Shown here: piece after piece, positions 1 through 53,814 of the stretch
Position numbering within the stretch: position 1 is the first letter of the stretch
How the letters are laid out: every line of letters begins with the position of its first letter
Origin: Lytechinus pictus
Taxonomy: Eukaryota
Assembly: GCF_037042905.1 (NCBI RefSeq)
Contig: NC_087245.1
Span: 33,110,001-33,174,000, forward strand
Direction: 5' to 3'
DNA length: 64,000 nucleotides
Position numbers and translations under genes: made by a program
Notes under the pieces: model-generated
The model's database searches: none
Told to the model about the DNA's origin: nothing
Seen by the model: only the letters and a program-made list of their open reading frames with translations

Positions 1-3000
1 GAAAAAAACAAGACATTGGGGACAACTTAACAGTGAAGTTTATGAACTTTGCTGATTCAAACGACATGGCTCATAAAATTTGTGAGAGCATTAAATGATA
101 TAAGGGGGGAAAAAATGGATGTTTGCCAAAAAAGAAACCGAAGCCCTATGTAAGGTAGGCACCGATGATGCAACATATATATATATTTGAATAATATTGA
201 TAGCCTTGAGATGAAGATGTAATATAATTATGAAAATTATGGTTCAATATTTAAGAATTTGACATGATGATGATTTGAAGCAATTGAATATTCCCATGTG
301 TCCCTGAAATTTGTGATGCAATGCATGATAATGCCAAAAAAAAAATCATAACTTGCATATAAAATTTATCACCTTATGATGAACATAGATTTGAATAGAG
401 CCAATGAATGGAGAGATGTTACAAACTATTCTGGATAAACCATTTAAAAAAATCTATTCACAGATACTCTAGCACTTGTTCCTGTTAATGCGGTAGATTG
501 ATTGATACATCACATGCTGTAACTTGTGGCTTTTACTCAGCCGAGCAGGTTGGTGCCAAATTTTAGCCACAAAATTTACGCAAGTCATGTAAGTATGTGC
601 ATCAAATTACATGTAATTTGAAACTGTAACAATAACAATGTATTTCAAGCAAAATATAAAATGAATAGAAAATTTGATAGAAAAGTCATTTGATTGCATG
701 ATCATGTGCTTCTATTGTTCAGCAGCATTTAATTAGACCAACCTTGTTTTCAGTAATATATGTCAGTGTAAACAATATTCAATATTAAAGTTTATATGAC
801 ACATTTACTAGTTAGACTGCAATAAGTAATAACACATCACAAAGAAATTAATACACCTCATGTCATACAGACAGTCCTTAAAAAAATAGAAAAGTACAAT
901 TTTGTTTAGAATGTCTTTGTAAGGATGTTTGTAAATTAATCATATTTGAATATCAAATATTGGGTCACAATGGTACAAGCTTTCCCACGGTTGACTTAAA
1001 AAGAAATTGCAAATAGTTTAATATCATTTTGTCAGAATAACAGGACTTGTGTAGATGGTCATAGATGATTTCCTCCTGTCAATAAAGGTCCAAATATTAG
1101 TGCATTAAATCAGGCAAACGTCACTGAATGCTACATGAAACAGAAGGATGATCTGACCGCACAGATAGATGGTAGCGATTGGCAACATTTACGGAACAAT
1201 CATCATTTCCTTGAGCTATCGATGGCAGGTTGATTCCCTTTGACATATTGTTTACCACATGTCTGATATGTTTGCGTGAGTGATAATTTACAAATATCAC
1301 GTTTTTGGAGAGAATTAATCAAATGAGATCTGCATGATTGCTCGCCTATTCTGCACGATATTGAAGAGATTCGTTGAAGCAAAACCCCCAAAACACCAAA
1401 TCTATATTTAACATGTTGTTTCTCAGCAGCAAAGTTCCTACTCTGGTAGGGAAGTCAATGCCACAATACTAAAACTCAAGGCATGTATTAGAATCTACTG
1501 TTAATGTCATTAATGAACATATATCAGAATAAACAGAATCCTACTATGCAATAATCAGCTACAAGAGCTTGACAAGGACAGAAATTAGCTCTGATCAGTT
1601 CACGATTTCTCAATAGCGATTAGAAATAAGATCTTGAAAGATGTTTCCCTATTTTTTAAAACTTTTTTCTAATGACAATACAATGAACGCTATTAATTCA
1701 AACTTGATGTGAATGGATTGGCAATACATGTACATTCCCAAACCTGTTCCAAATATTGCCTCTGGAAATCTGAATTTCACTTTATGGATGAATTTTCCTC
1801 TGCTCTTGTAATGTGTACAATATTTTCTCCACTTTATATGGGCACCCCCACCCCCCCCCCCAAAAAAAAAATAAAACCCCACCAAAAATAATCAATTACA
1901 AAATATCTTTACTACAAGAGCTACATTCCACACAGACAAAACCAATTAAATATGTAGCTTTACTTTTATAAACCAGAAATGACCTGATAATTTTTTTTCT
2001 TCTGTAAGTTGACCACCAAACGTTTCCCCCAAGAATATTGCTTTTAGACCCTGGAAAGGGTTCAAACTGGACATCGATATTCTAAGCCAGGTTAAAGCCA
2101 ATACCCTTAATTTTTAAAGAAAAACTTCACGTCAGCAATACAATATGAAGTTATCCTCTCAGTAAACCAGGATGAAATATGGCAAATTCACCATTTAAAA
2201 AGCCAATAATCTCTGGCGCCTCCCATGCACGATTAACAACTTCATCGCTCACTCTACAAAAATCCTGGGGATTATTGCAAAAAATGTTGATTTATTTTGC
2301 TTTCTGACAGCCAAGTTGTAGGATATTGAAAGATTGAGAGGATTATAGGCACAATGACAATTGAAATATGGAACAATAGAAACAACTTTGTACACATTTG
2401 GGACAGTTCAACTGGAACTTGGCAAATAGATGTTGAATATGGCTGATTTTGACTATCATGTTCAGGTTTTTAAAGTTCCAACTCAAGGATTTTCATCATG
2501 GTGTCCATTATATTCATCAAATATTCTTTAAAATGAAATGATTCATACTGAATTCTTCTTAAGCAATATTTGTTTTATAACTGCACATATAAACAAGCAA
2601 TAATTATGGATATGTAATCAATGCTTATGGATTTTCCTATATGAATGCTAGGCAGCCATAAATCAGTTTTGTTATTCTATTCGGCTGCTACCCTCTTGTT
2701 CTTAGAACTATGTTCTTAGACACTGAAACCTATTTTATGGAAGGACTATCTTTGAATTATATTTAAACCATGACCAAATAAATATCCTGGTTCAATTCTA
2801 GTGATCCCCCATGTAAATCCATGCTATCCTTGGTTCGATGCTAAATCAAATACAAGTTGACAGAGCGATTGCTTTTACTTCATTTGTGGTGAATTTCACA
2901 ATATTTGTTTCATAAAGCTCACAGCTTATGGGCAAATAGTATGGGATCCGCTTTCAATAATTATGGTTTTTCATACAAACCAAACCCTAAAAATATCCTG

Positions 3001-4919: not shown

Positions 4920-6463
4920 CTGTGGAAAGGGGACGAAAAAAGACAGAAAGAAAATTATATTAATGATCTCTTTTCTCTTTAAATAGTGAGGAATTGATAG
5001 GTAAAATACCACTCATATTCATATGAAGCATGTGGCAAATATTGTGAGAACTTCAGGTACTCCTGAATTTAAGTAAAGAAGGGAGCAGGTGGCAAAATCT
5101 TTCGGTAAGAATAAGAAACACAAAAATTTTCAATGTGTTCAGTAAGATTAACATTGAAAAAAAAAAAACCTTTCAATGAAAAGTTCATTGAGATTATAAA
5201 TAAATGTTTTCTATTTTCATGACAGTCCTTTTGGCTCATGTAATGCTGTTCAATCTGAAAAAAAAAGGCAAATGAGAGGAACAATAAGGGGACAGAATGA
5301 GAACAAAAGAAAGAGAACAAAATAGAGAAAGATGCATAGAGATATAGAAAGGTAACAAAAGTGAGAGGTAGAGAGAAAGAGGGAGAGAGAGGGGGGTGGA
5401 AGTGCTAAATCGTCTATCACAATACATTTTCCACCAAGTATAAGATCATCCTCAAGTCGAGGATTTACCAGTAATAGCATCTACAGGCAGACATGATCAA
5501 TTTCCTGTTCCAGGGGAGGAATATGCACAAAAAAGAGAGCTAGTCTATGGCTTACTTTAACAGACACACACAAGAGGGGAGCAGGTGGCTGAGGTCTTAT
5601 TTACAGGGGAGAGGGTAGCTAGATGTGATCCCAAATAATAAACTTCACTATGATGTTATATTGATGGATCAAATGTTGGAGGTAGGGAAGCTATCTACAA
5701 GAGATATGAATGTAGTATCTGTTGATGATTCTGAAACAAGGGCTGCGGAAGGGGGGGGGGGGGCTGAGTTGAAAGTGGGGAGCTAACCATGTTAAACATA
5801 ACAATCAGATAGTCATTTTTACTTTTTTATACAGTGGGGGTGGGGGCTGAATCCTCACTAGCTCCCCAGGTTCCAGGGCCCCTTTGAAAATATAGATATA
5901 TACTGCATAGGAGAAACATGGGTGGGTGGGTGGATGGATGGATGCATTGATAGACAGATTAACTGAGAGAGAAAGCTTGCAAAGAAGGGTAGAGAAAAGA
6001 GAGGAAAAGAGTGAGGCTAGGTAAAAAGAGGGAGGGAGTGATAGAGAAAGAAAAAAGTGGGTGTATATGTTCCATTTCTTTTCATCAAAACTCAATAAAC
6101 AAAAACAACTCCAACTGACCTAATAATGTGTAATTTAAGTCAAAGAATCAAACGGTCAAACATGATTGTATCAGGTCTTTCAAGAAAATATATACGGTTT
6201 CTGGAACTCAGCCTATATACCACATAGCCAAATGACCATGAAAATGTTAAAACGGTTTCTGGAATAAAGTCCCAAAATATTTGCTTTATAAAATCAAGGG
6301 ATGGAGGAGAGTAGTGCAATCACCTCCAAACTTCGTGATAAAACTGATTTCAAAAGGATTAATGAAAGCTAATCTAAAATCTCCCCATTTATGATCCAAT
6401 CTATAGAGGATCTGAAGTGAATAAGAACATGCACAAATATTTGATGAATTGCTATTATCATAT

Positions 6464-6949
6464 TGTAACATCCCAGAATTAAATAGTGTAATACTGCCAA
6501 TGTATTGTAATTTTGGTTATAACTTGTAATATGTATTGCATGTAGTTTGGTATAATCTACACTGGGCAGTTCTTTAATATAGTTTTCTTAGAATAATCCA
6601 TGACTAATTCCCTCTGTCCAGTGCAGAGATTGTTCTGTACACTTCGCTATTGGAAAGAGAAAGTAGAAAGTCTTAAAGTCATCTCATAGGAATGTTGTGG
6701 TCACCTGTGGAAGGGTGGAGGCAGAGAGAATCTGAATGAAGAAGATTATATCCTATTCATTCCATCTCACACCACCTTTGAGACAACATCTAGAGAGAAG
6801 ACATCTTAATATATTTTCAACACTTGATTTTTCCATGTCGAATCCAATCCATTAGGGGGTTTTTGTTATTCTTCTAAATAAAGTATGGCATCAAAAGAAC
6901 CTAGACCGCAATTCTGAGTCGTATATTCATCTCAATTTTGTGTGTCACA
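6464..6949 (+). repeat. 5' LTR (486 bp, intron-less form)
   Basis: 6464-6857 is identical by eye to 12668-13061; 6858-6949 matches 14464-14555 with 5 differences; AATAAA at 6877-6882; PBS follows. Confidence 0.96.
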
Positions 6950-6953
6950 TAAA

Positions 6954-6971
6954 TGGCGTAGTCGGCAGGAT
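6954..6971 (+). promoter_or_regulatory. Primer-binding site for tRNA-Ser
   Basis: TGGCGTAGTCGGCAGGAT is the reverse complement of ...ATCCTGCCGACTACGCCA, the 3' 18 nt of metazoan tRNA-Ser(AGA/TGA type) as I recall it; 4-nt spacer TAAA after the LTR. Confidence 0.9.
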
Positions 6972-7412
6972 GTCTACGTAACCCCCTAAGGAGTAAGACG
7001 AAGAGATTGCTGATCATCATTTGAGAGACCGTATCCGATCTTGGAGAGGCTGGACTCTTGGGAACTCTGAAGAACAGAACAGGATGTATGCTAGCTGCGA
7101 CCCCCAGGATCAGAACTGATGGACCAAGCGGATTAATGTTAGAGCAAGTGACTGATCAGAAGCAAGTTCAGCGGAACGTGTGAAATGCCAAGAGTGGACA
7201 TTGGAAAAACTATGAACGGACAATGAACATTGATGAAGAAGACTATTATATGGGACTACGAATAGAGACATGTGTGATGTAACATTGTTTTAAATTATTT
7301 CATACGTGTCTAAACTCTCAGCTTACCTTAAGAGATCTATGAATGTGATATATAGATATATATAGCTGTATTTTTCGATAGATCTCCCTTCTGTGCATCA
7401 CAGGGTTTAGGT

Positions 7413-8306
7413 ATGGACGTGCAGGAGCTCAAAGAGGAAATCGAGGCGCTGAAGGCGGCACTGAAGGCCAGAGAGGTGAAGGCGGAGGAGACTGGGAAGG
7501 TGCAAGCTGCCAGGCCGGTCTACGTAGCTCCAGGAAGGCGCCTGGAAGTCTTCGCGGGTAGGCCTACTCGCCAATCGGACCAGGGAGTCCATGATTGGGT
7601 AGCCGGTGTCAGGGCCCAGCTAGAGCTCAGAGGCATCAAGGGAAAGGAAGCAGCGGCTTTCATCCGAGAATACCTCGAAGGTGATGCCAGGAGGGAGGTA
7701 AGCGGGAGGGGAGAAGATATAAAAGATGACCCTGAATCGATCTTTTCCGTATTAACCAAAGTATTTGGTGACGGAAATTCACTACCAAGGCTCCAACAGA
7801 GCTTTTACTCATTCGAACAGGGACCTTCTTTTGACCTTCTGAGCTGCTCTCTACAGTTGGTAGACCTGTTCGACAGAATGGTTCAGCTGGATCCTACCCT
7901 CAAGGTCCAGCGCGAGCCATCTCTGAAGAGCAGGTTTGCCGAGGCAGTGAGGGATGAGGCTCTAAGGAGGGAGCTGAGGAGGCTTAATATAGAGTCTCCG
8001 CAGCTTTCTTTCTTTGAGCTTCGAGATAGGGCTCTGGAGTGGCTAGGACCAGTCCAGACAAAACGGAAGGACGCTTCGGTGAGGACCATGGTTGCGGACC
8101 CGGAAGTGATGGAGCTGCTGAAGAAACAGGCCGAGCAGATGGAGCGGCAGCAGAAACAACTAGACAAGATTAATGCGATCTTGTCCAGGCGTCAACCCCG
8201 GAAGACTCCACCTGGTGATGGGAAATGTTTCAACTGCGGCGAAAAGGGGCATTTCCAGAAGGACTGTAGAAAGCCAAAGAAGGAGAACCCAGATTTAAAC
8301 GGGTAA
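7413..8306 (+). CDS. gag: Gag (297 aa): N-terminal coiled coil, capsid, CCHC zinc knuckle
   Basis: ATG-started ORF downstream of the PBS with C-terminal CFNCGEKGHFQKDC (CX2CX4HX4C). Confidence 0.95.
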   Translation: MDVQELKEEIEALKAALKAREVKAEETGKVQAARPVYVAPGRRLEVFAGRPTRQSDQGVHDWVAGVRAQLELRGIKGKEAAAFIREYLEGDARREVSGRGEDIKDDPESIFSVLTKVFGDGNSLPRLQQSFYSFEQGPSFDLLSCSLQLVDLFDRMVQLDPTLKVQREPSLKSRFAEAVRDEALRRELRRLNIESPQLSFFELRDRALEWLGPVQTKRKDASVRTMVADPEVMELLKKQAEQMERQQKQLDKINAILSRRQPRKTPPGDGKCFNCGEKGHFQKDCRKPKKENPDLNG

Positions 8307-8352
8307 CTCCCACCGTCAAGAGCCTGACGGTGGGTGGGTCAGTTGACGGCTC
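8294..8352 (+). promoter_or_regulatory. -1 ribosomal frameshift signal: slippery heptamer plus stem-loop/pseudoknot
   Basis: T TTA AAC (8294-8300) is correctly phased in gag; 10-bp perfect stem CCCACCGTCA (8309-8318)/TGACGGTGGG (8325-8334); loop GAGCC is complementary to GGCTC (8348-8352); pol is in the -1 frame and open from the slip site. Confidence 0.9.
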
Positions 8353-11300
8353 AATTCTCTTACAGAGAGCAGTAGGAGATTGTCCAGAGGTCATCCTCGA
8401 CCTTGGATCCGCAAGATGTGTCAGGTGCTTGATAGACACAGGAGCACAGGTATCGACTGTGACTGAGGCATTTTTCAGGAAATACCTCAGCCACGAGTCG
8501 ATGGTAGATGTGTCTAGCATCCTCAGCATCAGCGGAGCCCAAGGACTTACAATCCCCTACTGTGGATACGTCGAACTGACAGTTCGGGTGCTTGGAAGGA
8601 GCTTTCACAACATGGGCTTCCTTGTTGTGAGGGACCCTCCCAAAGCATTGAGTGATAGAAAGAAGCGAGTCCCTGGAGTAATCGGTTCGAATGTCTTGAG
8701 AGACATGCGGCATGAACTGCGCAACGAGCTTGGGGAGGATTTCCTAGATAAGTTCAAGGGTGAGAGAGACGCTACTTGGGCTAGTGTCTTGGCCTTGTAT
8801 GAGGAAATCTCCTGCGTGAATCTCACGACCAAGCTTGGTGGGCTGGGTAGAGTTGCCGGGACGGGACCAGTATTGCTCCAGGGAAGGTCTCTGCAGACAT
8901 TGCAGGTTTCGGTAAGGCCTGCAAGGAGGGGGGAGATTCGTACTGTGATTGTCGAGGAAATCCAAGGAGAACATCTCCAGCCTGGCATCAAGGTAATATC
9001 TTCCTTCCTCCAGGTGTCCGAGAATGGCCTAGTGAATGTCCCTGTGTTGAATCTCTCAAACAGAGACATTTACATCCATCCAAGGACACCAATAGGGATC
9101 GTCAGCGATGCTTCTGAAGTCAACCGACAGGCAAGGCAACCAGCAGTCTGGGTTGAAGAGCATCGACAATCCTCATCTCCTGCGGTCGAACAAATACTTC
9201 AGAGGATGCAGCTAGGAGACATCTCCAAGGAGCAGCATAGAGCTCTTGAGGAGCTCATAGGGAAGTATCTGGACGTCTTCAGTCAAGATGAGGATGACAT
9301 CGGCCTATGTAAAGATGTGGAACATAGAATCTATACAATGGATGATGTTCCCGTCAAGGTCCCACATAGGCGGATCCCACCGCATCATTGGCAAGAGGTA
9401 AGGGACTACCTGAAACAATATCTTGACAAGGGTGTCATAAGGGAATCGTCAAGCCCTTATGCAGCCCCGGTGGTTCTGGTGAGGAAAAAGGATGGCAAGC
9501 TGAGGTTATGCGTTGACTATCGTGCTCTTAACACTAAGACGCATAAAGACGCATATCCTCTGCCAAGGATCGAAGAGGCATTAGAAGCATTGAGAGGAGC
9601 TCGCTTCTTCTGCAGCTTGGATCTTGCCCATGGATTCCATCAGATCCCGGTAGCTGAAAGGGATATCCAGAAGACGGCTTTCCGTGTTGGTACTGGTGGG
9701 TTGTATGAATTCGTAAGGATGCCTTTCGGTTTATGCAATGCACCAGCTACTTTCATGAGGCTAATGGATAAGGGGTTCGGCGATCAGAACTTCCAGACGA
9801 TTCTGACTTACCTGGATGACATTCTTGTGTTCGGACGAGACTTCGATGAAACCCTTCAAAGGCTCGAGATGGTCCTTGGGCGTCTTCGAAAGATGAACCT
9901 GAAAGTCAAGGTCGAGAAATGTCACCTCTTCAAAAGGAAACTCAAATATTTGGGTCATATGGTTGAAGAGGGGGGCATCTCTCCTGATCCAGACAAGGTA
10001 AGGTCCATCCAAGAGTGGAAGACTCCCGAGAACGAGACTGAACTTCGGTCATTCCTTGGACTGGCCGGGTATTATCGGAGGTTCGTTCCCCGATTTGCGA
10101 CCATTGCGGCACCCCTTCATAATCTGGTAGGAGGAGTGCAACAGAAGAAGAATAGTCGCAATGGCAAAAAAGGGAAGGAATCCAACACTAGGAAAGTGGT
10201 CAACAAGAAGTCAGTTGCAGAGGCTTGGGATGACAGCTGTACCAATGCGTTCCAGGAACTCAAGGACCAGCTGACATCCGCGCCCTTGCTAGGTCATCCT
10301 GACTTCAAGAAGCCGCTTATCCTAGAGACTGACGCTAGCTTCAATGGACTCGGAGCTGTACTATCGCAGAAGCAAGATGGTCGGCTTGTTGTTCTTGGGT
10401 ATGCCAGCAGAGGACTACGGCCCCATGAAAAGAACATGAACAACTACAGTAGTATGAAATTGGAACTTCTTGCTCTTTATTGGGCAATAACAGAGAAATT
10501 TCGTGATGTACTACTGGGGGCAGAGTTTGTTGTTTTCACAGACAACAATCCTCTAAGCTACCTGCAGACAACAGCCAAACTTGGCGCGACAGAGATGAGA
10601 TGGCAAGCAGATCTTGCTCAGTTTAATTTCAAGATCGAGTTCAGATCTGGCAGGCAGAATGCTAATGCAGATGCCTTGAGCAGAAAGACTGAGCATGGGA
10701 TCGAGCAAGGGAGACTTGAAGAAGTTGAAGTGAGTCTCCAAAGCCACCCTGCATCAATGTCAACGCCAATACCATCAATGCTTGCTGCGAGAGTAGAGGA
10801 GGTCCTTGAGGTTAGAGACACAACCCAACCTGAGGAAGGAGCAGCTTTATCTACCCTTCCTACCCTGCCAAGGGAAGAATTGGCAGCTCTGCAAAGGAAT
10901 GACTTAGTCATTAAGAGGGTGCTAGCCTACATGCAGAAAGGAGATAGCCCGACCCCGAAACAGATGGCTAGAGAGGGTAAGCCAGTTCGGAAACTGTTGA
11001 GGCAGTGGGAGCGTCTCTTACTTGTAGATGGCATTCTGCACCGCAGAGTTACGCTGATGGGGCATCCAATCAAGCAACTTCTGGTTCCAGAAGCCTTGAA
11101 GGAAAGGATCTTAAGTGCCCTCCATGACGAAGTTGGCCACCAAGCTTCTGAGAAAACAACGAAGTTAGCAGTTCAACGCTGCTATTGGCCAGGAATGGAA
11201 GCCGAGATCCGTGCCTACTGTGACAAGTGCCAGCGTTGCCTACTTTCCAAAGCAGGTAAGAAACTTCACCCTAAGATGGGATCACTGATTGCGAGAGAAC

Positions 11301-12574
11301 CTCTGGAAGTACTCGCGATGGACTTTACAGTGCTAGAGCCCAGCTCTAGTAGAGTGGAGAATGTCCTTGTACTAACCGATGTCTTTACGAAATACACACA
11401 AGCATTTCCTACTAGAGACCAGAAAGCTAGTACAGTTGCAAAGGTGCTCGTCAATAATTGGTTTGTAAGGTTTGGCGTACCTAAGCGACTGCACAGCGAC
11501 CAAGGTCGTAATTTTGAGAGCAGTCTGGTAAAGGAACTTTGCCGAGTGTATGGAGTACATAAGACGAGGACCACCCCTTATCACCCAGAGGGCAATGCGC
11601 AGTGTGAACGGTTCAATCGAACTATGCACGACAGACTGCGTGCTCTTCCGCCAGAGAAGAAGAAAAGATGGCCAGAATATCTCCCGGAGCTGGTGTATGC
11701 TTACAACTGTACACCACATTCTTCCACAGGATATTCCCCATATTATCTCTTCTTTGGTAGAGAGCCGGTGTTGCCCATCGATCACCAGCTAGGATTTCAA
11801 GACTCAGACTCGGACTCAGACTGGTTAGAAGGTCATCATGGACGCCTGCGAATTGCATTTGATATGGCAAGGCAGATGACCGAGAAGGAAGCGTTGAGAA
11901 GAAGGGAGAGGGTAAACCGTACCGCCGAAGACACAAGCCTTACTATTGGGGCTAGAGTGTTCACCAAGAATCGCATCCTCGGGCGAAATAAAATTCAGGA
12001 TGCCTGGAGTGACACTCCGTATAAGGTGGTAGCGAGACCCAATCCCGAGGGGAATGTGTATGTCATCGAACCGCTTAGAGGTGATGGTTCACAAAAGACA
12101 GTCCATCGTCGAGACCTATTAGATGGACGTGGACTGGTAAAAGACATCAATCCTGATCGTTTCAATGATGTTACACATGAACCTCAAGAAACTACCCTTC
12201 CTTCCGACAACCGATCTGACGAAGAAGATGAGCTGAGGGAGGTACTCTTTCGAAGTAAGACTCCGCCACCTGTAGGTAATACTGACCCTACAGATTGCAT
12301 TCCAGTGGGTACTTCCGAAAGAGTAGGGGAGCACCAAGCTCCTCCGGTTGTACCAGATACTAGGCAGCAGGTAGCAGAAGGGAATGGTTCCTCGGCTACA
12401 GAACCTGATACAGCTGAAGTTACCGGTTCAGACCACGAGGTCGAGCCTGTAGTTCCAGTCAGGAGGTCTGCAAGGTTGCAAGGTAAACCGCCTACCCTTT
12501 CATCGGAAATTGTGGCGGATATAACTAGATCTCATTTGTTGTTTATGCAAATGATGTCTAATCCGAATCCATGA
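8300..12574 (+). CDS. pol: Pol polyprotein (protease, RT, RNase H, integrase), expressed as Gag-Pol by -1 frameshift
   Basis: LIDTGAQVS protease (DTG at 8435); RLCVDYRALN, MPFGL and YLDD (9809-9820) RT; ETDAS...ELLAL...TDNNPL RNase H; HDEVGH...CDKC zinc finger and MDF/HSDQG/QCERFN DDE integrase. No stops. The ORF-track start at 8330 is a GTG, not the real start. Confidence 0.96.
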   Translation, partial: RVTPTVKSLTVGGSVDGSILLQRAVGDCPEVILDLGSARCVRCLIDTGAQVSTVTEAFFRKYLSHESMVDVSSILSISGAQGLTIPYCGYVELTVRVLGRSFHNMGFLVVRDPPKALSDRKKRVPGVIGSNVLRDMRHELRNELGEDFLDKFKGERDATWASVLALYEEISCVNLTTKLGGLGRVAGTGPVLLQGRSLQTLQVSVRPARRGEIRTVIVEEIQGEHLQPGIKVISSFLQVSENGLVNVPVLNLSNRDIYIHPRTPIGIVSDASEVNRQARQPAVWVEEHRQSSSPAVEQILQRMQLGDISKEQHRALEELIGKYLDVFSQDEDDIGLCKDVEHRIYTMDDVPVKVPHRRIPPHHWQEVRDYLKQYLDKGVIRESSSPYAAPVVLVRKKDGKLRLCVDYRALNTKTHKDAYPLPRIEEALEALRGARFFCSLDLAHGFHQIPVAERDIQKTAFRVGTGGLYEFVRMPFGLCNAPATFMRLMDKGFGDQNFQTILTYLDDILVFGRDFDETLQRLEMVLGRLRKMNLKVKVEKCHLFKRKLKYLGHMVEEGGISPDPDKVRSIQEWKTPENETELRSFLGLAGYYRRFVPRFATIAAPLHNLVGGVQQKKNSRNGKKGKESNTRKVVNKKSVAEAWDDSCTNAFQELKDQLTSAPLLGHPDFKKPLILETDASFNGLGAVLSQKQDGRLVVLGYASRGLRPHEKNMNNYSSMKLELLALYWAITEKFRDVLLGAEFVVFTDNNPLSYLQTTAKLGATEMRWQADLAQFNFKIEFRSGRQNANADALSRKTEHGIEQGRLEEVEVSLQSHPASMSTPIPSMLAARVEEVLEVRDTTQPEEGAALSTLPTLPREELAALQRNDLVIKRVLAYMQKGDSPTPKQMAREGKPVRKLLRQWERLLLVDGILHRRVTLMGHPIKQLLVPEALKERILSALHDEVGHQASEKTTKLAVQRCYWPGMEAEIRAYCDKCQRCLLSKAGKKLHPKMGSLIAREPLEVLAMDFTVLEPSSSRVENVLVLTDVFTKYTQAFPTRDQKASTVAKVLVNNWFVRFGVPKRLHSDQGRNFESSLVKELCRVYGVHKTRTTPYHPEGNAQCERFNRTMHDRLRALPPEKKKRWPEYLPELVYAYNCTPHSSTGYSPYYLFFGREPVLPIDHQLGFQDSDSDSDWLEGHHGRLRIAFDMARQMTEKEALRRRERVNRTAEDTSLTIGARVFTKNRILGRNKIQDAWSDTPYKVVARPNPEGNVYVIEPLRGDGSQKTVHRRDLLDGRGLVKDINPDRFNDVTHEPQETTLPSDNRSDEEDELREVLFRSKTPPPVGNTDPTDCIPVGTSERVGEHQAPPVVPDTRQQVAEGNGSSATEPDTAEVTGSDHEVEPVVPVRRSARLQGKPPTLSSEIVADITRSHLLFMQMMSNPNP

Positions 12575-12654
12575 CTTTTTATTGATCACTGTGTTGTAGT
12601 TGTTTAAGTATTATATTTTTTTATTGTGTAAAAGTTGTCAGAGACGACAACATC

Positions 12655-12667
12655 GAGTAGGGGAGAA
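12655..12667 (+). promoter_or_regulatory. Polypurine tract
   Basis: GAGTAGGGGAGAA directly abuts the TG start of the 3' LTR. Confidence 0.88.
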
Positions 12668-14555
12668 TGTAACATCCCAGAATTAAATAGTGTAATACTG
12701 CCAATGTATTGTAATTTTGGTTATAACTTGTAATATGTATTGCATGTAGTTTGGTATAATCTACACTGGGCAGTTCTTTAATATAGTTTTCTTAGAATAA
12801 TCCATGACTAATTCCCTCTGTCCAGTGCAGAGATTGTTCTGTACACTTCGCTATTGGAAAGAGAAAGTAGAAAGTCTTAAAGTCATCTCATAGGAATGTT
12901 GTGGTCACCTGTGGAAGGGTGGAGGCAGAGAGAATCTGAATGAAGAAGATTATATCCTATTCATTCCATCTCACACCACCTTTGAGACAACATCTAGAGA
13001 GAAGACATCTTAATATATTTTCAACACTTGATTTTTCCATGTCGAATCCAATCCATTAGGGGTAAGTCGAATCACAATTCACATTTTAAATAATGATATT
13101 TATAAATGTTTTGCTTTAACCATTGTTGTTTAAAATGGATTAAGAATATCATCTATCATCTATTTTTGTTCTCTAAATATTTAGGATAAGTTAGTACTTT
13201 TTCTGTGAGATATATCTATGTTCAATTTCGTTTTGATCCTTTAAATGTGTTTTCTATTTCTTTTGTTATGAATGTTCCTTAATGTATTATTTGATATACA
13301 TGTGCTACATTTGATTTGATTTCATATGTTGTGTTAAGACAAAGGTCTAGAAGTATTTTATCGAACATGATTCGCGTGGATATTTTGCATCAATTACTCA
13401 AATTGAGGTTTACATAATTCCGTTGATTTAAATAATCCAATCATGCTTCATAAACTTCTTTGTTCGTATTTCTTGGAGGAGAAGTGATATTATTGTTGTG
13501 TTTTACTAAAAGTAACATTTGTTATTTTATCGGTATTATTGTGCTAAATAATATTAGTTTCATCTAATTATTTCTGTATGGTCAGAAATTGACTTTATTT
13601 GCTTAGCATTATATTTATGATTTATATCCAAAATGATTACGTTAGATTCATATGTAGATATTCATACTTTGCATTGATGTTTGCGTAGTTTAAGTTTATA
13701 AGAAACTTAGTACCTTTAAGGCTGTTGCTAGGCGACAGACAGCATTCTGATACATATTGGGGCTGTTGGCCAGTTGCATCATTCATAGTAGTTGGCAGTG
13801 TGACGTCATGAATCACGGCACATGCTGCAGAAGTTCTGTGGAGCTTCATGGTCATTGTTTAGGTTAGGGGTGATAGGTCACTCAGGAATGTAGTATTATT
13901 GTCTAGGGACTAGCCCTGTCCACACTGAAACAACTTGTTATCTAGTTGCACTGTGCTTTGAGGAGTACTAGGGTCTGTTCATACTTGAGATCTAATCTGA
14001 TTTAATTATTAATCCGATTTAACTTTAGTCTGGTTTAACTTTAATCTTTTACTTGTATTTCAAGTTAGGGTTTTGTTTTTCATAATTCATTATTATTCAA
14101 TGATATTATTGACAATCAGCTTGAACTATTTATTATTATTTTAATGAAATTCTTTTTGACAATCATGTTTATTTATCATTACATATATTCATTTAATCAT
14201 TCATGTTATCTTATAACTTGATATATAATTTCTTTGATGTTTATTCTTTGTATCTCTTTCCTTCTTCTCATTTTCTCTCTATTCTATTATACGTTTATAT
14301 AACGCCTTATTTTGTCGTGTTATTGCATATTGGTTGAGTGAAACATGTAATGTGATGATAGTAGAGTCGAGCTACCAGCTTACTACTTTTATTACTGATT
14401 GTTGTATTGAAACTCTTGATGTATATGACAATTTATGATTCTTTATTTTCTATTGTTTTCCAGGGTTTTTGTTATTCTTCTAAATAAAGTATGACATCAA
14501 AAGAACCTGGACCGCAAATTCTGAGTCGTTATTAATCTCAATTTTGTGTGTCACA
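12668..14555 (+). repeat. 3' LTR (1888 bp, intron-containing form)
   Basis: Two blocks homologous to the 5' LTR (12668-13061 and 14464-14555) separated by 1402 bp; AATAAA at 14483-14488; ends TGTCACA followed by the TSD. Confidence 0.94.
13062..14463 (+). other. Spliceosomal-type intron inside the 3' LTR
   Basis: Begins GGG|GTAAGT, ends TTCTTTATTTTCTATTGTTTTCCAG|GG; T-rich; its removal reproduces the 5' LTR junction ATTAGGGGGTTTTTG exactly. Confidence 0.88.
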
Positions 14556-17500
14556 ATATTTTGGACGTCAGAATATGGAAGGGCAAATTGTGATTTTGAG
14601 TTTGTATTCCTACTACTATATAAACAACCTTAATGTTCATCAATCACTTATCAGAAAGGATGATGAATAATGTACCCTTCTAATACATATCTGACATTGT
14701 TTAGCTCGCTATAATAAAAGGTAAATCTCTTATTGTCAAGCTCGTTATACCTGAACAAAACATCGGAAAATTAATTTATCAAAACTGATCAATTTGTTTT
14801 GTTTATGTAATAGTAGACACAATAAAGTATGTACGGATTATCCTTTTAATTTAATTTCATGATTACGATGACCTTTAACGGTATCCCAGCATGCCTTGCA
14901 GGGACAACATCACAATCTAATTTTGCTTGTAATGAAAAGCTCGATCAATTAAGGTCTATATCCGATACGGTAATGAATGAGGAATGCTCATTAATGTAGC
15001 AAGGATGAGAGCGATGAATCTACCGTTCAACTTGGCAGGGAATTTCATTGTTGCTATGCATTTCAACCTTGCACGAGGACATGAATGTTTCAACAATGTC
15101 TTGAGTAGCTTATTACAATTTCTTGTAGAGAAAATCAACATCAAGGACTTGTTGCATGAAAGTTACTATTATTGTAACTTCCATGGAATTCATGATTTTG
15201 AGTGGCTTAGAGCAATGTTACCATGGTATTCACTACTTAGTAGTTATTGGATAGCAAATTTACCAGAATGGTAATATGCAACAGGCCCCAGAAATTACTT
15301 CAGGTTGCATATGCTGATACCCCCTCCCGCTGTGTTTTTGTGTGGTCCCATCAATGTGTTTTTGTGTTGTCTGTTGTGAAGTTCAGGTGTTACCGTATAT
15401 GTCATGTGCCAAGGGCATGATATTAATGAGATAATCACCCTAAAGTGCATCAAACTATGACTATCTGTACTACCTTCGTTAGGATGGTGGAGTGTTATCT
15501 ATTAACCCTTTTCAGACTGGTGTCAAGCAAATCTATATTTATGTGGATTATGCCTATAGGAATGAGGGAGTCCTGTAGGCTACTCATTGGGTAAACTGCA
15601 TGTTACAAATTACTTACATGCATGCAATAAACATGTAGTTTATAAATCAGAAGTGACCCCTTTCCCTTATAAATTTTCTGCACCCCAGTCTTATTACCTC
15701 TTACTTCAAATGAAAGTGAAAACCGAAATACTACTTTTTCATCAGATTTACTCCTCAACAAATGACTATAAAAGATGCTTAAAGATTATATTCATACTTT
15801 GATAAATTTTCAAAAAAATGACTTTTAAATAAATTGCATTTACTGTTCCTTATTCTTTATGTATAGAATTATATAGCAGAAAAGGTCCCAATTTTTAACT
15901 TTAAGAAAATCTCTATCCTATTTGATGTTCACAGCTAATTTGGACAAGTCATGTGCGGAACAGAAGACTCTCTTGATCAAGGATCAGATTCTGATTCCTA
16001 ATGACAGTGTGACACATCTCCATTCTGGGGACTTTCACACCTACCTCATCGGTAAAAAAAAAACCCTAACATTTGCCAATCTGAAAGTAAATATTTGTAA
16101 CACCAATGAAGGAAAGTACTTGAAAATCAGTAGGTTTACTTGTCAAAATGATGAAAATCTTAAAAAAGAATTCATGCAAGGTCAAGGAGACGTTTGCGAT
16201 TGTAACCACATTATATATATATATAAAAACTTTTGTACTTTGACACGAAGAACCTGCATCATTTGCTATAGGAGTGTGGGATGGGAACCAATGTAAGAGT
16301 TCAAGAACTTGTGAATGCATGAAATGAATTATCAGATATTTTTCTGATTGGGTGGGTGTGAGTGTATCTTCCTGATCCCCATGACAGGATATCACCATAT
16401 CATCTCTGATGTTCCAAAAATCTGCTCCAGATTCTTTTAAGCAACAACGGTTTGAGCAGGTGTTCTTTGACTTGTACTTTCATGGATTAAAAAGTATACT
16501 AAAGCTACAAGAGGTAAGATGATCTTTATTGTCCTTTTCTTCATGTCATATTTACTTTTTTTTTTACTGTGATAATTAACATAAATGATACAAATCTCCA
16601 TTGTTTTTCTTCATGCCTCTCTCTTGCATTTCAAGTGTTTTATAATGAGAACTTCAAGAGATAAAGACAAGTCCCTATCATCTCATTGTCTCATTCATTT
16701 AGCATGTTTTAAGAAATATGACACGCTCCTCATCGTCTTTTCTTCTCTCATGAGTTTATAATGTTTTCTTAAGTGAGATCACTTCTTTGCATCAATTTCA
16801 CTTTTAAATTAAAAAAAATCCCTGATGATATAGGTCTGAATAAAACATACAAAGGGAATACTTTTTGTGCATTCTTTTAATAAATTTTCTATTATATCAG
16901 ACATGCCAGTCACCACATTCTACTACTGTTTTAAAGAAAAAATATGACCAAAGCCCCAGGTTATCCTGTAATAGTCCTAATGTTAACTTAACATTGAGAA
17001 GAATTCCATTAACTAACAAAAAACAATAAGAGAATTTTGAAATCTACAGTAACAGTGGAAACTTCTACACCTTTCTAATGACTATCATAACATTTGTTTT
17101 TAAAAACACGTTTTGAAACATTTGCATCAAAAGCTTTTGAACTGAAAGCCAGCGTTCCATAGCTTGACAATGTTATAATATGGAATGAAATAAAAATAAC
17201 AATCAAGCTACACTTACTAATCAGAAAAATGGCAATGAATTCATTACATTCTCCCTTTAAAGAAATAATGTATTCTCTCTAGCATTTCCTATTGTCAGGC
17301 ACCTGCTCATAATCCTAATCCACAAAAACCCTTGTCAGGTCCAGACCCCTGAATTCATGTTATCCAGATATTAATCAACTTGCGCATCTCATTTGTCATA
17401 CCAAATTAAAGTAAATCCACTGAAATTTCATATATGTAAAACAAAACATCCGCAAATGCTTAGTTTCAATTATGGTAAATTCAAAACATATTGCATAAGC

Positions 17501-20337
17501 ATATACAGAACACGGACCAATTACCTGTCTCATATTACAAAATTTTGCATCATTTTGTAACCAATTTGGCAATTTAGTTGCCATTAATCCTCAACCATCT
17601 CGCGAATTAGCATGGCTTTTGATCCCCCGGTCTGTTGACATTTTAAATATGTTTGCTCCAATTATGTCTCGGCCTGAAACATGTTACCAAAAACCAAAAC
17701 ACGATTCATGTTGCATATCATTAATTTGCTTGAATGACTCAATATCCATTCATTTTTCAAAAACATTTTTATCTGTGACAAATAACCGATTCACATTTTG
17801 TTTAAATGTTATGTATGCAAGCCACATGGCTTCACGCTCATGGAGTTTCATAACGTCATTCATGAATTCTAAATGTTTGTTCCAACCTTTGGATGTGTTT
17901 ATGTAGTAGTCGACTTAAGACCCTGACCTAGTTTCATGCATAGCAATAGACATATTAATTAGATTACTTGGGTATGATGACATACCTTTCGGCATTGATA
18001 AATAATTAGTTTGGTAAACAGAGCATGCAATTAAGGATGCAGCTATGTGAGCTGCTTGCTTAACAGATAATTATATAACATAAGTATGGTTTTTGCTCTC
18101 ATTTGAATATTAAGACTTATTCAAGAAATATGTGCCCCCAAACAAATAATTGTTTCTCTCTCCCTCATGTATTTAAATCTAAATGAAATTTTGAAATCTG
18201 ATAGCTATATGCTTGTTTAATTTTTTCTCAGATGAAAATTGTTGGGCAAATCCAAAAAGAAATGGAGAAATAGAATCCTAATTCTGATCTTGGCTAGAAT
18301 ACTTATTACCTGACATTTAAAGAGCAGAGATAGAAATATGAATACGGACAGATGAAATTGCCTGTCATATCGACACTAGAATGAAATGATGCTTTACAAA
18401 CCGACATGTCGGCATATCTCTCGGTTAAACTAAGGATTAGATCCATAAATGCATGACTAAACCTTGCATAACTGAAACATTACAAGGGATAAATGCCTGT
18501 TTCCTTTAGTTACAAACTTAAAAATAAATATAATCGTTATTTTCTCACACAGGATAAGGGAGGGTAAGAAGACAGATAAGATAAAAGTCAACAGCTGGGG
18601 GCCATAATACATGGGGGCTTAGCAAAGGGAAGCATTTGATATTCTTTCATGAATGTTCATTTCTATACACAGAGAGGATAAAGTATGTCAGATTGATTTT
18701 GGTGAAGCTTTGTAAATGTAATTTAATTTCTTTTAGATGTAACGGGATGTGATTATGTATGTTTGGGAGGGGAGGAAAGGGGGCATAAAAGAAGCCCCTC
18801 TATAAGTCACAGGATGCATCTCATCACGCAGCAATAATTTAAATTTGAGATTTTTTTTTTGTCTTTCGCGGAGGAGTCATTAAAATAAAGTTCTTTCAGT
18901 CTGGGGATATGTCTTGAGGAAAGGGATGGATAATGAGGACAACGTGAGTACTCTATTCTAGACAGACAAGTTTAATATAAAAACAAGCTAAAGTTAAGGA
19001 TTGAGAAAAAGGCCTAATAAAGGAGAATATCAGAGACAAGTGATTAAAGATTTATTAACTTAGATGCAGGCTAGAGAAAGACACTTGGGAAATCAGTTAG
19101 GTACTGGAACATAAAGCTGACAAAAACATGAAGAACAGTAACAGTGAAAGATTGAGAAACAGTAACAAATAAGGAGAGAAAAGAAAAGAAAAAAAATAGA
19201 AAAGGGGAAATAGGAAGGTACCATATCCTAAAACCACAGGTGGAATAAGCTGCAAGCAAAATATCACCAAGAAGGATGAGGAAATATTTTTAAAAAATTA
19301 TATCTTTTAATTCTAGAATTTCTTTTTTAAAGAGCAGCGTAGGTGATGGTGTAATGCCATCAGTAGTGTATCAATTTCAGATATATTCCATATGTTAAAG
19401 AGGAATATCTTAGATGATTTTTAATTACAAGCTTTGAGGAAGGATTGAATGATGCTATCATGGAGGCCCACTAACCGATGTGATAATGGATAACATATTG
19501 TTTTACCAGATCAATTTAAAGGGTAATCAAAAAGATATCCATGGCAGAAATATCTACAAGAGACTTACATTAATCTTAAAAACTTTCTAGGAAATAGGGG
19601 GTATTTGCAAAAGCAGAGTATTTTCGTATAATCATCAAATTTCATTCAATCATCTCCAGATTGGAATAGGTAAATATTAATCTTATGATTGTTAACACTG
19701 CTATATCTAAAGCTCATCCAGTGACTATGCAAAATGTTGAGCTGAATTGTAAAAAGGCTTGAAAATAGCAGATAGGCTTTCAAGCTGTGTGCTTGCTTTC
19801 AATTTCCAGAATAAAAAACTACCGCTTACCCTCCAGCTAATATCATTTGATTCCCGTACATTACCAGACTAATGAAGCAATTGAGTCATTAACCAATTTC
19901 AGGTCAAGAAATTTAATATCTGGCCTAGATGTCTCAATCAGTAATGAAGACAAATATTCAGAACAATATTGGCCTCTCCAGGGACTGGATACTTACTATG
20001 TGCACTGCATAAAACACATTAGATTTTTTATAATTCAATAATAAAGAGTTCATTTTAAAGTTTATTGCCAAAGAACAAAGACATCCCATAGAAAGACAAT
20101 GATGATGTATTTCTATGGCCTCTGACACCACGCCGAGATTTGAACCCCCAACCTTCCTCTTTGTGAACCAAGGGAACTAACCACTCCTCAACTATAACCC
20201 TCACATCCTTTACTCACTTATTAACCCACTTGGTACTGAATTATGTTTGTTCTATTGGTAATGTACATGGAACCATACTGTTCTAGTATGCAGTTATGAG
20301 TTGCTCCCAGGCCCAGATCCTGAACTGAAAGGATTAA

Positions 20338-20917
20338 AGGACAAGTCCACCCCAACAAAAAGTTGATTTGAATAAAATGAGAAAAATCCAACAAGCATAA
20401 CACTGAAAATTTCATCAAAATTGGATGTAAAATAAGAAAGTTATGACATTATAAAGTTTTGCTTAATATCACAAAACAGTTATATACACATCCTGGTGAG
20501 TATGCAAATGAGGAGACTGATGACATCATCCACTCACTATTTATTTTGTATTTTATTATATAAAATAGGGAATATCCTATTTTCTCCTCATTGTCAAGTG
20601 AAACAACAATTAATTCCTCCCTGAACATGTGGAATTAGCATTGTTTAATACTATATGGTTTAGTCAAGGTGGTCCTTACTGTCAAATCTGTATAAAATGA
20701 AATATTGTGTAATTCAAACAATAAAACACAAAAGAAATAGTGAGTGATGGACCTGTCACTGAGTTGCGCATATCACTGTTCTGTGAAAAATAAGCGAAAC
20801 TTTAAAATGCCATAACTTTCTTATTTTACATCCGAGTTTGATGAAATTTTCAGTGTTATGCTAGTTTTATTTTCTCTATTTATTCAAATCAACATTTTTC
20901 TGGGGTGGACTTGTCCT
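20338..20917. mobile_element. Non-autonomous DNA transposon with TTAA TSD (Kolobok-type termini)
   Basis: TTAA|AGGACAAGTCCACCCCA ... TGGGGTGGACTTGTCCT|TTAA, with long imperfect subterminal inverted repeats and no ORF. Confidence 0.88.
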
Positions 20918-21841
20918 TTAAACAATTTTTAATCTAATGTTAGGAACAGAGCATATACTATATTCCCTGGTTAGATACACTATGGTTATAAAAACCTTAA
21001 AAGTACAGCAAACTAAAAAAACTAAAAACTAAAAAAAGGTACCAACTTGGCCCAGATCCAAGTATTTAAGAAGAATTGAGCCATGGGATCATCTCCCTTA
21101 AGTTATGTAACTTTTCCTTTCTTCCTCTTACTTAAAGTAAGTACTTAAGCTGAGGATAAGGATTACTGGGCAAACATTTGTCTGTAATGAAGGCAGGTGA
21201 AAGCTTTCAAAACTGAGAATAAGCTCACACTCTGACGTTCATTTCAGAGTTTCATCGAGTTCAATAGAAAATGGGTCATGTAGGATGTATGATCATGTTT
21301 GAAGCACATTTGAAAGAGACAAAGAATGAAAACAGAGAGGGAGAGAGAAGAACGCTTGATTGCAATCTCATGACAGGTGCCTCGGCTTAATTTGGTTAAA
21401 GATTTAAGATTAGATTATATGCACTATTAAAAGAATGGTTCATTAGTATAGATTTTAAAAAATTGGTTTAATATGAAGTTTAAGATTTACATTTTGGTAA
21501 AGGATTAAAATTATAGAGACTGAGAAATTGTCTTGTGGCTATATGTAATTTCCTATTAAAAGAGACACCATTGCCAGCGAATGGGCCAAATAAACCAAGT
21601 GGCAGAAACAATGATTCTTGAGATGATTGACTATTATCATGATTATAACTTCCTTCTAGTTTAAACATATAGCACCCTTTTTTAAATGGGATAAAAAGCA
21701 TATTTTAAAATATTTTAAAGTACTTTTCCAGAATACGGTCAATGACCTTCATCTGCTCTTGTGAAATTGTAATCCTAGAAATTATTTAGTGTAGATCTTA
21801 AGTATATTTGAAAGGGACAGAATTCACGAGATATTTCTTAC

Positions 21842-32900: not shown

Positions 32901-33953
32901 TTTTATCCGATGCTATAGAATTTGACCTAATTTAACCTATATCTGGGAGTGTTCTTTTATTTTCAAAATAAATCATATTTGTAATATTCTCCTTTGACTT
33001 CGATTTCATCAGCTCCTCTTGGTAAATAATAACCCCTACACACTACTAATCCATATTTGGATATATTCTAAATCATAACAAATCCACCATATGTTATTGG
33101 ATACATCTGCGGAATCAATTTTGGTATATCCATCCTATTGTGTTGCGCGGGTGTTGCGCTATGGAAACGGCTAATTACAAAGAAAGGATCACTGTAGCAA
33201 TGGCATTGTAATGTGTTGAAAAATACTCATGACATTTGTAGGAGCAGCTCTTGACCTAGAAAATCTCTCTCTCTAAAAAACAAATACATGTATGCTCATT
33301 TTTCAACAATCAAAGCTATTACATCCCAATTGTTCACAAATGCTATATACTTTGGTCAAAATCAAATTTAATTTAAAAAAATCAAGTAGGTACATTTACC
33401 ATCAAGGGAGGATAAAGGCTGTTAATTTTCATCAGAATCAGAATTGCAATTCAAAATGCCAATGACCCCATCTAATACCTATTATGATAATATTGAGAGA
33501 GTATAAATAATGCAAATTTCTTCACAAGATTACTGGTATAATCATTTCAATAGGCAGTAACTTACATATATGATTTTCTTTCTTGCCCCCCTTTCAATAA
33601 TCTACCTGACACACCATATATATCTGTTGTCCAGTATAACCCTGGATGGGTTAATGCATTTACCCCCTAAAATGGAGCTATTGTGTACTTGACATTGTTG
33701 GGGGTATGTTAATCCTATTACGGGGATCAATAGGGGTGTCAATTGTTCCCCATGGTATAAATGTCAACACAGGTGTAACTAATCCCGTTTGTTACCTTTG
33801 GAGGTACATGTACATAGGTAACAAGATATGGGCATGTTCACATGTGGAAAATGTATAAGGTGAAAGATTAAGTTCCTTTAATTAGCTTGGTTGATGTGCG
33901 ATATGAAAATTTGATATGAACAACTGATGTTACCACATGCAAATTGTTCTTAA

Positions 33954-34547
33954 AGGGGAATCCAACCCAAATAAAAACTTGTTTTATAAGGAAAAGTAAA
34001 ATCAGACAAGTTGATAGGTGAAAGTTTGAACAATATTGGACAAACAACAAGAAAGTTATGAATTTTTAAAGTTGTAAATATTGGTAATCACTACACCCAT
34101 GGAGACTTCAAATTGGCCGCATATGGGATGTCATAGTGATGTAAGGCAAGGACTACTCTTCCATGTACTCCAATACATATTATTGCCAAAATGTCATTTT
34201 TCCCAAAAGTTTTATTTCAAATTATATTTTTCTTTCATGAAGACATAAAACAATATACTACCTGGGTTATATGTTAGATTACTGCCCCAGGGGATTGGGT
34301 ACTTAGGAGAAAACCACAAATCCCTGATAATAAAGTACATGGCCTATGGGAAAGTTGTCCTTGCCCCTTGTCATAATTTTCTTACTCAGTTGCCAATTTG
34401 AAATCTACATAATATTAGTGATCTCAATTTTAAAACAGCTATAATTTTCTTATTGCTTGTCCGATTACTTTCAAACTTTCACCATTCTGTTTAATTGATT
34501 TTTCTCCTTCCCAACACAACATTTTATGGCCAAGGCTGGATTCCCCT
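33954..34547. mobile_element. Non-autonomous DNA transposon with TTAA TSD (Kolobok-type termini)
   Basis: TTAA|AGGGGAATCCA ... TGGATTCCCCT|TTAA, with imperfect subterminal inverted repeats. Confidence 0.85.
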
Positions 34548-51865: not shown

Positions 51866-51976
51866 ATATGTGCTTAAATACAAAGCAATAATGGATGATC
51901 CTAAAATAATGTTCATTCATTAACCACAAGGGTCTGTTTAATAACAAGTACAGTATTTTTGCTTTATAAAGATTAA

Positions 51977-52377
51977 TACCCCTTTCATAAACCCAATAAA
52001 ACCCAATTATGCGGCTAATAGCAGCATAATTTGGTCGTAAAATCAGAAAAGGACAAGAGTTATCCGCATTATTCTGATGCTGCTATTATCCGCATAATAG
52101 CTGCATCGGGACAAGATTTTGAGTTTATGAACATATTTCCAAAATAATGCGGCTAATTGCCATGGTGCGGTCACAAGGTCACCCTTTTCCAACACAACCG
52201 CATCGGAGGGGGCGTGTCCAGTTGTCATGACGATTATCCGCCTTTTTCAGGACGGGCGCTCGTAAAAATAATGCGGATAATTTTCGGAATTTGTAAACGC
52301 TATTTTTATTGAATTATCCGCATTACTCTTAGGCGGCTAATTGGAGGATAGGTTTTATTGGGTTTATGAAAGGGGTA
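51977..52377. mobile_element. MITE with 27-bp TIRs (Harbinger-like TNA flanks)
   Basis: TAA|TACCCCTTTCATAAACCCAATAAAACC ... GGTTTTATTGGGTTTATGAAAGGGGTA|TGA; internal repeats GCGGCTAAT and TTATCCGCAT. Confidence 0.87.
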
Positions 52378-53253
52378 TGAGTCATTCAATATCAAGTGCT
52401 ATTGGGCGCACCAACATGAATCTATATATAATTATGTCTTGCCGATTCCTAGACTGTATGTTGAGTTGACACAAAGAGTAATAACACCCAACCCCTTCCT
52501 AAAAACTGTTTAATACTCTTGATGTAAAGTCTGTTATGACCAAAACCAAGGTATTGAACCCTCGACTCTCCATGGGGGGGGGGGTGGCTAACCATCTAAC
52601 CACACACTGTTACAAAATACATGCTTTTTTCCTTTTAAATATATGATATGTCAATTAAGTCTCGTTTACGTAAAGGGCCGACCACGGGGTGATAATATCG
52701 AATTAAATTATATTAAAAAGGGTTACTGGGTAATAAGTACATTAGTCACAACAAAAATTGTAGGTCAATATACTTCAATAAACCTCTGAGGGTGGGGGGC
52801 ACTCAAATTATATTTTGATGGGGATGTGCCTCACGAAGCCCTGAAATGGGGGTCTAAGGAACTGACCACAGGGGTAGAATACAGGGTCTTGTTCCAAAGG
52901 GTGCCAGATATATCCATTTGAGTTGGAATAAATGTCAATATAACAACAGCTTCTATTCTCTCCCTACTTCAAATTCCTTCCAAATACACAGCAGTACCTG
53001 CTCCCAGGTAATTAAAATGCTTCAAAAGAACTTCCCAAACCCCAAGAACCAAGGATAATACAGGATCAAGGTGGATAGAGTACTCACAATGGAAAAATAG
53101 ATTGATGACTCTTACAATATTACAGGCATTGATCTAATCCAGGACTGGAATAATGGTGTAATAAGGGATTAGTTAAGTGTCCAGAGATGACATGTAAATA
53201 GGTGTATTATAAGACAGGTGGACTATGGATCTATGCAGCATATGTTGGTCATA

Positions 53254-53716: not shown

Positions 53717-53814
53717 TAAGGTAAAACTTAATCAATATCCTGATAGAAATACTAATCAAACGTATTCAACAACTGTTGTAGACAATATTGTGTCACAGCA
53801 AGGGTAATAATATT

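Follow-up and report, generated by a model that had tools for sequence, protein, structure and literature searches.

In textbooks, the proof of retrotransposition is that introns are lost when RNA is reverse transcribed. Such loss also underlies the idea that hosts spot retroelements as intronless DNA, and the available text of a study of HUSH states that retroelements need long non-coding introns to avoid recognition and yet are constrained from keeping them (PMC8770142). The locus studied here raises the question of how a retroelement could keep such an intron in its long terminal repeats (LTRs), and how a single copy could come to have one LTR with the intron and one without it. It lies in a 64-kb stretch of sea urchin DNA, called the window below, and its features (window positions, strand) are as follows.

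6460..6463, no strand: target-site duplication, left, ATAT
6464..6949, + strand: 5' LTR in the short (spliced) form, 486 bp, TG..CA, junction 6857^6858
6464..6857, + strand: LTR upstream of the junction (U3 plus, under our best model, the start of R), no difference from 12668-13061
6757..6762, + strand: TCATTC, which we take to be initiator-like, a candidate start site; CATTCCATCTC in the copies 84% and 77% alike
6858..6949, + strand: last LTR exon and U5 of the 5' LTR, identical to the haplotype of the C2 copy; AATAAA at 6877
6954..6971, + strand: primer-binding site, complement of the tRNA-Ser(AGA) 3' end
6993..7403, + strand: putative second (leader) intron, GTAAGA...CATCACAG, proposed from the consensus only
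7413..8306, + strand: gag with CCHC knuckle; TTTAAAC at 8294 within the gag/pol overlap
8270..12574, + strand: pol frame, 1434 aa, with reverse transcriptase, RNase H and integrase in Gypsy order
12655..12667, + strand: polypurine tract
12668..14555, + strand: 3' LTR in the long (unspliced) form, 1888 bp, TG..CA
13062..14463, + strand: GT-AG intron in the 3' LTR, 1402 bp, absent from the 5' LTR
13724..13808, + strand: motifs in the intron that we take to be X-box-like (13724) and CRE-like (13801), of putative function, in all 8 long young LTRs
14464..14555, + strand: last LTR exon and U5 of the 3' LTR, C18-like haplotype; AATAAA at 14483
14556..14559, no strand: target-site duplication, right, ATAT

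The element spans 6464-14555 and has gag, a pol frame, a tRNA-Ser primer-binding site (PBS), a polypurine tract (PPT) and flanking ATAT. Pfam matches in the pol frame lie at 404-564, 653-785 and 939-1157 (reverse transcriptase, RNase H and integrase), the protease is visible only as a DTG motif, and a -1 frameshift at the gag/pol overlap probably starts from TTTAAAC. The pol order, TG..CA LTRs, tRNA PBS, PPT, short target-site duplication and gag are those of a Ty3/Gypsy element. The LTR identity expected of young Ty3/Gypsy insertions was not found in this copy; it was found in the C18 copy, nearly in the C2 copy, and in copies of sister families. Relatives were 60-70% alike in annelid, cnidarian and mollusc records and 50-56% alike in fish and amphibians, with no named references among the matches; a Mag-like clade is a lead. 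The primer tRNA-Leu was set aside; the PBS complements tRNA-Ser, and neither the literature search nor the viral contigs searched gave a match to this PBS. The putative leader intron, found in four of four young copies, ends 9 nt upstream of the gag ATG; it contains 13 ATGs, and a packaging signal may lie inside it.

The 1402-bp segment is almost certainly a true intron that was lost via an RNA step. It begins with a GTAAGT donor, ends with the acceptor TTTTCCAG and is 44% T, and its excision recreates the junction of the 5' LTR exactly (three placements are possible, GT-AG among them). Only 4 of the 1.67 million possible deletions of at least 60 bp within the 3' LTR run from a consensus donor to a pyrimidine-rich acceptor. 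All 8 long young LTRs carry the U2 signals GTAAGT and TTTTCCAG, with a pyrimidine tract and YAG; within 70 nt, a branch-point scan gave loose YTRAY words only. AATAAA begins 19 nt past the acceptor. No inverted repeats of at least 30 bp were reported in the segment, and the hallmarks of MITEs, SINEs and LINEs (terminal inverted repeats, a target-site duplication of its own, poly(A), free copies) were not found for it. These results bear out the earlier note, which had described an intron precisely missing from the 5' LTR, with a consensus donor, a pyrimidine tract, T-rich composition and no terminal inverted repeats, about 20 nt from AATAAA. In the genome search, the ends of the intron were found inside family LTRs only. 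Its middle (LTR 690-1153) is about 70% like another, large repeat family that the ends do not match, so the segment is not a free mobile element; no exon-1 or acceptor remnants were found next to these 70% matches. That repeat family is more than 3 kb long and about 95% alike in at least 28 copies, and the 460-bp piece that resembles the intron middle carries the X-box-like motif (L013-L030, about 1500-1950).

Other copies of the element's own family (family 1) were collected in genome searches, with 40 of 49 candidates scored in one and 20 of 20 in another. Among the candidates scored, three elements are long/long (C1:40.99M, C18:4.82M and C2:69.38M), one solo LTR is long (C12:25.63M), and the long form was seen in 8 of 9 young LTRs, with intact splice sites in all 8. 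The older relics include a 5' LTR (C5:24.8M, 84% alike) with a spliced-length junction with one change, a short solo LTR (C10:26.3M, 77% alike) whose junction is too diverged for calling, and one broken long relic. In DNA of a second species (run X9) the intron was covered throughout, and there were also short joints, one of which skips 1396 bases, as many as the intron has in the reference copy. A contig of organism B carries a short LTR, which is also a 5' LTR.

One long/long copy, C1:40.99M, has 100 nt of a site on C20 at the end of both LTRs, after which the last 42 LTR bases come a second time (L031:3844-3984), and the source site is empty in the assembly (C20:9660127-9660226, L045). We infer a 3' transduction into the LTR, in which strong-stop DNA jumped very early onto a read-through RNA and the whole 3' LTR was copied with its intron. 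This supports the proposal that strong-stop DNA can jump onto an unspliced 3' end, as the earlier note had it. The LTRs of this copy (L031 and L032) differ at 210 and 285, and both alleles occur in other copies, as conversion or recurrent change might produce.

Two sister families in the same genome have the same arrangement. Family 2, with pol about 73% alike, has a 2086-bp LTR (222, 1767 and 97 bp) with donor, acceptor and AATAAA in the same order as in family 1. All five of its LTRs are long, so its intron is put forward from the consensus only. It has an acceptor upstream of gag and no GTRAG donor downstream of the PBS, so the LTR donor is the likely partner of that acceptor. The start of its LTR (L046:460-680) contains two words that we take to be kappaB-like. 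Family 3 (L065, L067, L069) is non-coding and consists of about 25 insertions with 1.4-kb LTRs and an AT-rich inner part of 1.65 kb; no autonomous partner was found. Its 1423-bp LTR has three exons and two introns (389, 473, 76, 360 and 125 bp in order). Of 32 LTRs compared at the first donor, 25 show no splicing, whereas exon 1 is joined to exon 2 in 5 and directly to exon 3 in 2, after 11 of 43 matches were dropped as chance (control 16). Eight LTRs in seven insertions have lost an intron or both. In C12:4.33M, which has CTAA on both sides, the 5' LTR is spliced at both introns and the 3' LTR is complete, with only 2 exonic differences between them; C4:7.32M is short/short with mismatched flanks; and among the solo LTRs, three have neither intron (in one of these the second junction is decayed), one is without the first only and one without the second only. 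Exact loss takes three junction types, exon skipping included, in seven LTRs at donor 1 and more at acceptor 2. The spliced LTRs are scattered across a tree of 19 LTRs, so the losses were independent and no lineage of short LTRs has spread. The copy C2:52.88M, in which the inner part is joined to the acceptor region with the pyrimidine tract kept, was rejected as a deletion, not a splice. At C1:17835232-17835261 the exact end of family 3 exon 1 is followed by unrelated sequence, either by chance or as a chimeric retrocopy.

The LTRs of the three families are unalignable beyond short words, and splice sites are kept in all of them. One such word, AGAAAGTAGAAA, is common to the first LTR parts of families 1 (6658-6669) and 3 (LTR 110-121). 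The earlier note had suggested that copies be sorted by LTR form; the 13 pairs classified, which exclude C2:52.88M, comprised 10 long/long, 2 short-5'/long-3', 1 short/short and no long-5'/short-3'. Intron loss is seen in about a quarter of insertions: 1 of 5 in young family 1, 7 of about 25 in family 3 and 0 of 3 in family 2. Either the short forms must therefore be at some handicap or the intron must be regained. The enhancer-like motifs within the intron offer a lead on a disadvantage of the short form. Taken together, these data show a Ty3/Gypsy clade with long spliceosomal LTR introns that end just upstream of the poly(A) signal, in which long LTRs propagate and exact intron loss repeats. 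The view that the family keeps a spliceosomal intron is upheld by the predominance of long young LTRs and by exact loss in independent copies and in another family. The LTR intron is a feature common to the clade, and its loss is strong genomic proof of splicing.

RNA reads added little. The raw reads, 56 in X21 and 52 in X22, and 26 contigs contained no spliced joint from the young family; raw cover was thin and came mostly from an old short C5-type copy. First mates of X21 and X22 lay on the + strand, which is antisense in most stranded libraries. Because of the thin cover, the old copy and this orientation, these runs are uninformative on start site and splicing. Run X2 spanned donor and acceptor unspliced at a depth of 70-77, dropped to 2.6 just after AATAAA and left gag uncovered; it held no young-family spliced joint. 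X2 is probably RNA, judging from its size and the unevenness of its cover, with the library unrecorded and a contig break as another possible cause of the drop at AATAAA. Together with copy C1:40.99M, this run speaks for the copying of 3' ends that were left unspliced. No place where many molecules begin was found in these thin RNA data.

The two LTRs of the window copy give more detail. Their first 394 bp are the same, and all 5 differences, 3 substitutions and 2 indels, fall in the last 92 bp (Fisher p = 2e-4); these differences fit two haplotypes present in other copies. The 5' last exon has the C2 haplotype, which runs on through the leader/5' UTR (11 sites between 6950 and 7249 are common only with the C2 copy), so that the C2-like block starts at the junction and reaches 7213 or beyond. 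At the 3' end, the last exon is C18-like. Four changes clustered at LTR 109-117 occur in both LTRs of this copy and nowhere else, and its 5' LTR nests among long haplotypes.

Our best model, to which we give a probability of about 0.5, places the intron in R, spliced at the 5' end of the RNA and kept at the 3' end, with a minus strand that ran on to the spliced 5' end of a second RNA. Transcription would start upstream of the donor, and the intron would then lie in R and occur twice in each genomic RNA. The 5' copy would be an ordinary leader intron, often spliced, and the 3' copy, about 20 nt from AATAAA, would mostly be retained. The landing site of strong-stop DNA would set the daughter: on the last exon, the 3' intron would be copied back to give long/long; in the middle exon, the first intron alone would be kept; upstream of the donor, the daughter would be short/short. 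For the window copy, strong-stop DNA of RNA 1 would have landed on the last exon of the unspliced 3' end of RNA 2, and the minus strand would presumably have run on along RNA 2 until it reached the 5' end, intact and already spliced. The plus strong-stop would have paired with this minus strand over a 1.4-kb loop, and the 5' LTR heteroduplex may have resolved to the spliced strand. Two such RNAs would give the same first 394 bp, a C2-like 5' last exon running into the 5' UTR and a foreign C18-like 3' last exon, and an unequal pair made in this way would in every case have its short LTR at the 5' end. The intron would persist if short copies are dead ends or disadvantaged. The earlier note suggested that this copy captured one spliced and one unspliced end. 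An early jump alone would give two long LTRs; a short/long copy takes one step more, and the haplotypes point to it.

Several lines of evidence argue for an intron in R. The unequal pairs are 2 short-5'/long-3' against 0 reverse in 13 pairs, numbers that by themselves are not significant; the short LTRs of C5:24.8M and of the organism-B contig are also 5', and an element of another host (L108, below) points in the same direction. All five forms of family 3 follow one rule, and its spliced LTRs are scattered over the tree. Splice sites are kept in unalignable families, one of them non-coding, which is hard to explain if splicing merely destroyed a promoter. The early jump of C1:40.99M agrees with the model, as do the unspliced cover of X2 and its drop past AATAAA. 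In family 3, a word that we take to be TATA-like lies about 30 nt upstream of words that we take to be initiator-like, which are 70 nt upstream of the donor, and the model also agrees with maize transcripts that start before their introns. Against it, the haplotype switch is absent in the other 5 family-3 pairs and C12:4.33M has only 2 exonic differences, so the haplotype argument rests on one copy. A comparison of 5' with 3' LTRs in 5 pairs from family 3 and 1 from family 2 gave no position for the start site: the differences were scattered and nearly all private. The model does not explain the differences of the C1 LTRs at 210 and 285, packaging of unspliced RNA would retain the intron just as well, and neither X2 nor the thin runs X21 and X22 gave a young-family spliced joint.

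An unlikely alternative is that the intron belongs to U3 and holds the promoter, with a start inside the intron or past the acceptor. Only the 3' end of the RNA could then be spliced, spliced daughters would be promoterless and die out, and a short/long copy would arise by plus-strand transfer between two minus strands. The dominance of long LTRs would fit, the X-box-like and CRE-like motifs occur in the old related sequence as well as in the long young LTRs, the repeated 42 bases of C1 could mark a start past AATAAA, and short R regions are known, down to 16 nt in MMTV according to the available text of PMC6088434. But the window copy would need three RNAs, or two parents with one U3 haplotype; no direction is predicted, and long-5'/short-3' pairs are 0 of 13; splicing would be purely harmful, yet its sites are kept between families; and the likely pairing of the family 2 LTR donor with the acceptor before gag speaks against it.

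We regard as comparably improbable that the element inserted with two long LTRs and that recombination with a C2-like spliced cDNA or short genomic copy later overwrote the 5' LTR together with some of the leader. One donor would account for the C2-like block over its full length, and the discordant shared alleles of the C1 LTRs hint at conversion; however, no short C2-like donor was found in the assembly, where all 20 candidates were scored, the tract would need a left edge no more than about 110 bp from the junction, and nothing in this explanation makes the 5' LTR the short one in both asymmetric elements. A fusion of halves of two copies by the assembly is very improbable. It would explain last exons of two haplotypes, but ATAT stands on both sides, the 4 private changes occur in both LTRs, a second short/long element has matching CTAA, the short junction is present in organism B DNA, and an exact splice junction cannot come from mis-joining. 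We give still less credit to the notion that the segment is a mobile insert, or was deleted at the DNA level and is an intron in looks only, or that the short LTR is ancestral. The likeness of LTR 690-1153 to the large repeat family and the two old short copies, which may predate the intron, could be read that way. This reading is largely excluded for the window copy by segment ends that occur in LTRs only and by a 5' LTR nested among long haplotypes; the old long relic and the three junction types of family 3 also oppose it.

The nearest precedent is in maize. The available text of a 2026 bioRxiv preprint describes LTR retrotransposons with spliced LTR-contained transcripts that start in the LTR upstream of the introns, with canonical introns of 1303 bp on average, and its authors call this the first evidence of LTR introns (PMC13192763). 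The maize transcripts often have three exons with a short middle one, as in family 3, whereas family 1 has one LTR intron. Theirs is a plant case seen in RNA only and interpreted as lncRNA; the sea urchin case consists of genomic copies. The parts of the preprint that were available contain no genomic spliced-LTR copies, unequal pairs or account of how an intron survives reverse transcription (PMC13192763). The earlier note knew of no described precedent; at the RNA level the maize case is one (PMC13192763). Genomic spliced LTRs and short/long pairs were not reported in the literature searched, a search thin on subscription journals and made without Repbase. The accessible text of PMC9341512 and PMC5668417 has nothing on LTR introns.

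Among other elements, Penelope-like elements are described as keeping spliceosomal introns through retrotransposition, with a GIY-YIG endonuclease, pseudo-LTRs and a proposed antisense or unspliced template (PMC3846280, in the text available). Both they and the window element keep introns, but the latter differs in its DDE integrase, tRNA PBS, PPT and true LTRs; a GIY-YIG endonuclease and the lack of a tRNA PBS, which mark Penelope-like elements, were not seen in it. Ogre, EVADE and Cer1 have introns in the body, where splicing makes mRNA and unspliced RNA is copied (PMC12786077, in the sections at hand). Those introns lie between the LTRs as a single copy, whereas that of the window element is duplicated along with its LTR, which allows a copy to be regained after loss. 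Standard reverse transcription, as outlined in the available portions of PMC6894440 and PMC6088434, has two jumps, an intermolecular first jump, mosaic U3/R-U5 from co-packaged RNAs and acceptor invasion, and ends with identical LTRs. The R lengths cited there are 16-247 nt, against the roughly 1.5 kb with the intron that we propose here.

According to the available text on HUSH, retroelements are constrained from keeping long introns (PMC8770142), whereas this clade, with non-coding LTR introns of 0.4-1.8 kb, does so and is a natural exception to the intronless rule. Its genomic copies record packaged RNA isoforms and the positions of strand jumps, and the maize RNA observation, unexplained so far, becomes a testable replication problem. 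The two LTRs of a copy can be unequal from birth. Age estimates based on LTR identity, and finders that require LTRs of similar length, will therefore misjudge such copies or miss them.

The arrangement may extend to other hosts. Relatives there (L096, L097 and L108) showed similar features, as judged by eye. In L108, an 80-nt GT-AG segment in the downstream LTR is exactly absent upstream, with LTRs that are 89% alike and may be collapsed copies. A scan for an acceptor and poly(A) signal at LTR ends was positive in 8 of 22 sense and 1 of 22 antisense cases; T-rich ends bias it, and it missed family 2. Tentatively, and with more doubt than belief, we propose a widespread animal Gypsy clade with long host-like introns in a kilobase-scale R. 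Splicing at the 5' end would make the RNA resemble a host mRNA, with benefits for export and translation and for evading the silencing of intronless DNA; in every cycle an early jump would rebuild the intron from the 3' copy, which stays unspliced; and unequal pairs would be frozen run-on/heteroduplex intermediates. A PBS scan of the sea urchin's own genome gave 22 places, and in families L050-L054, L056, L058 and L062 the PBS is shared and the layout absent over the 350 bp seen. L108, L110 and L056 have a partly duplicated PBS or LTR-end sequence just upstream of the PBS. The window also contains four MITE-like inverted-repeat elements, at 20334-20921, 33934-34567, 51959-52395 and 53252-53718.
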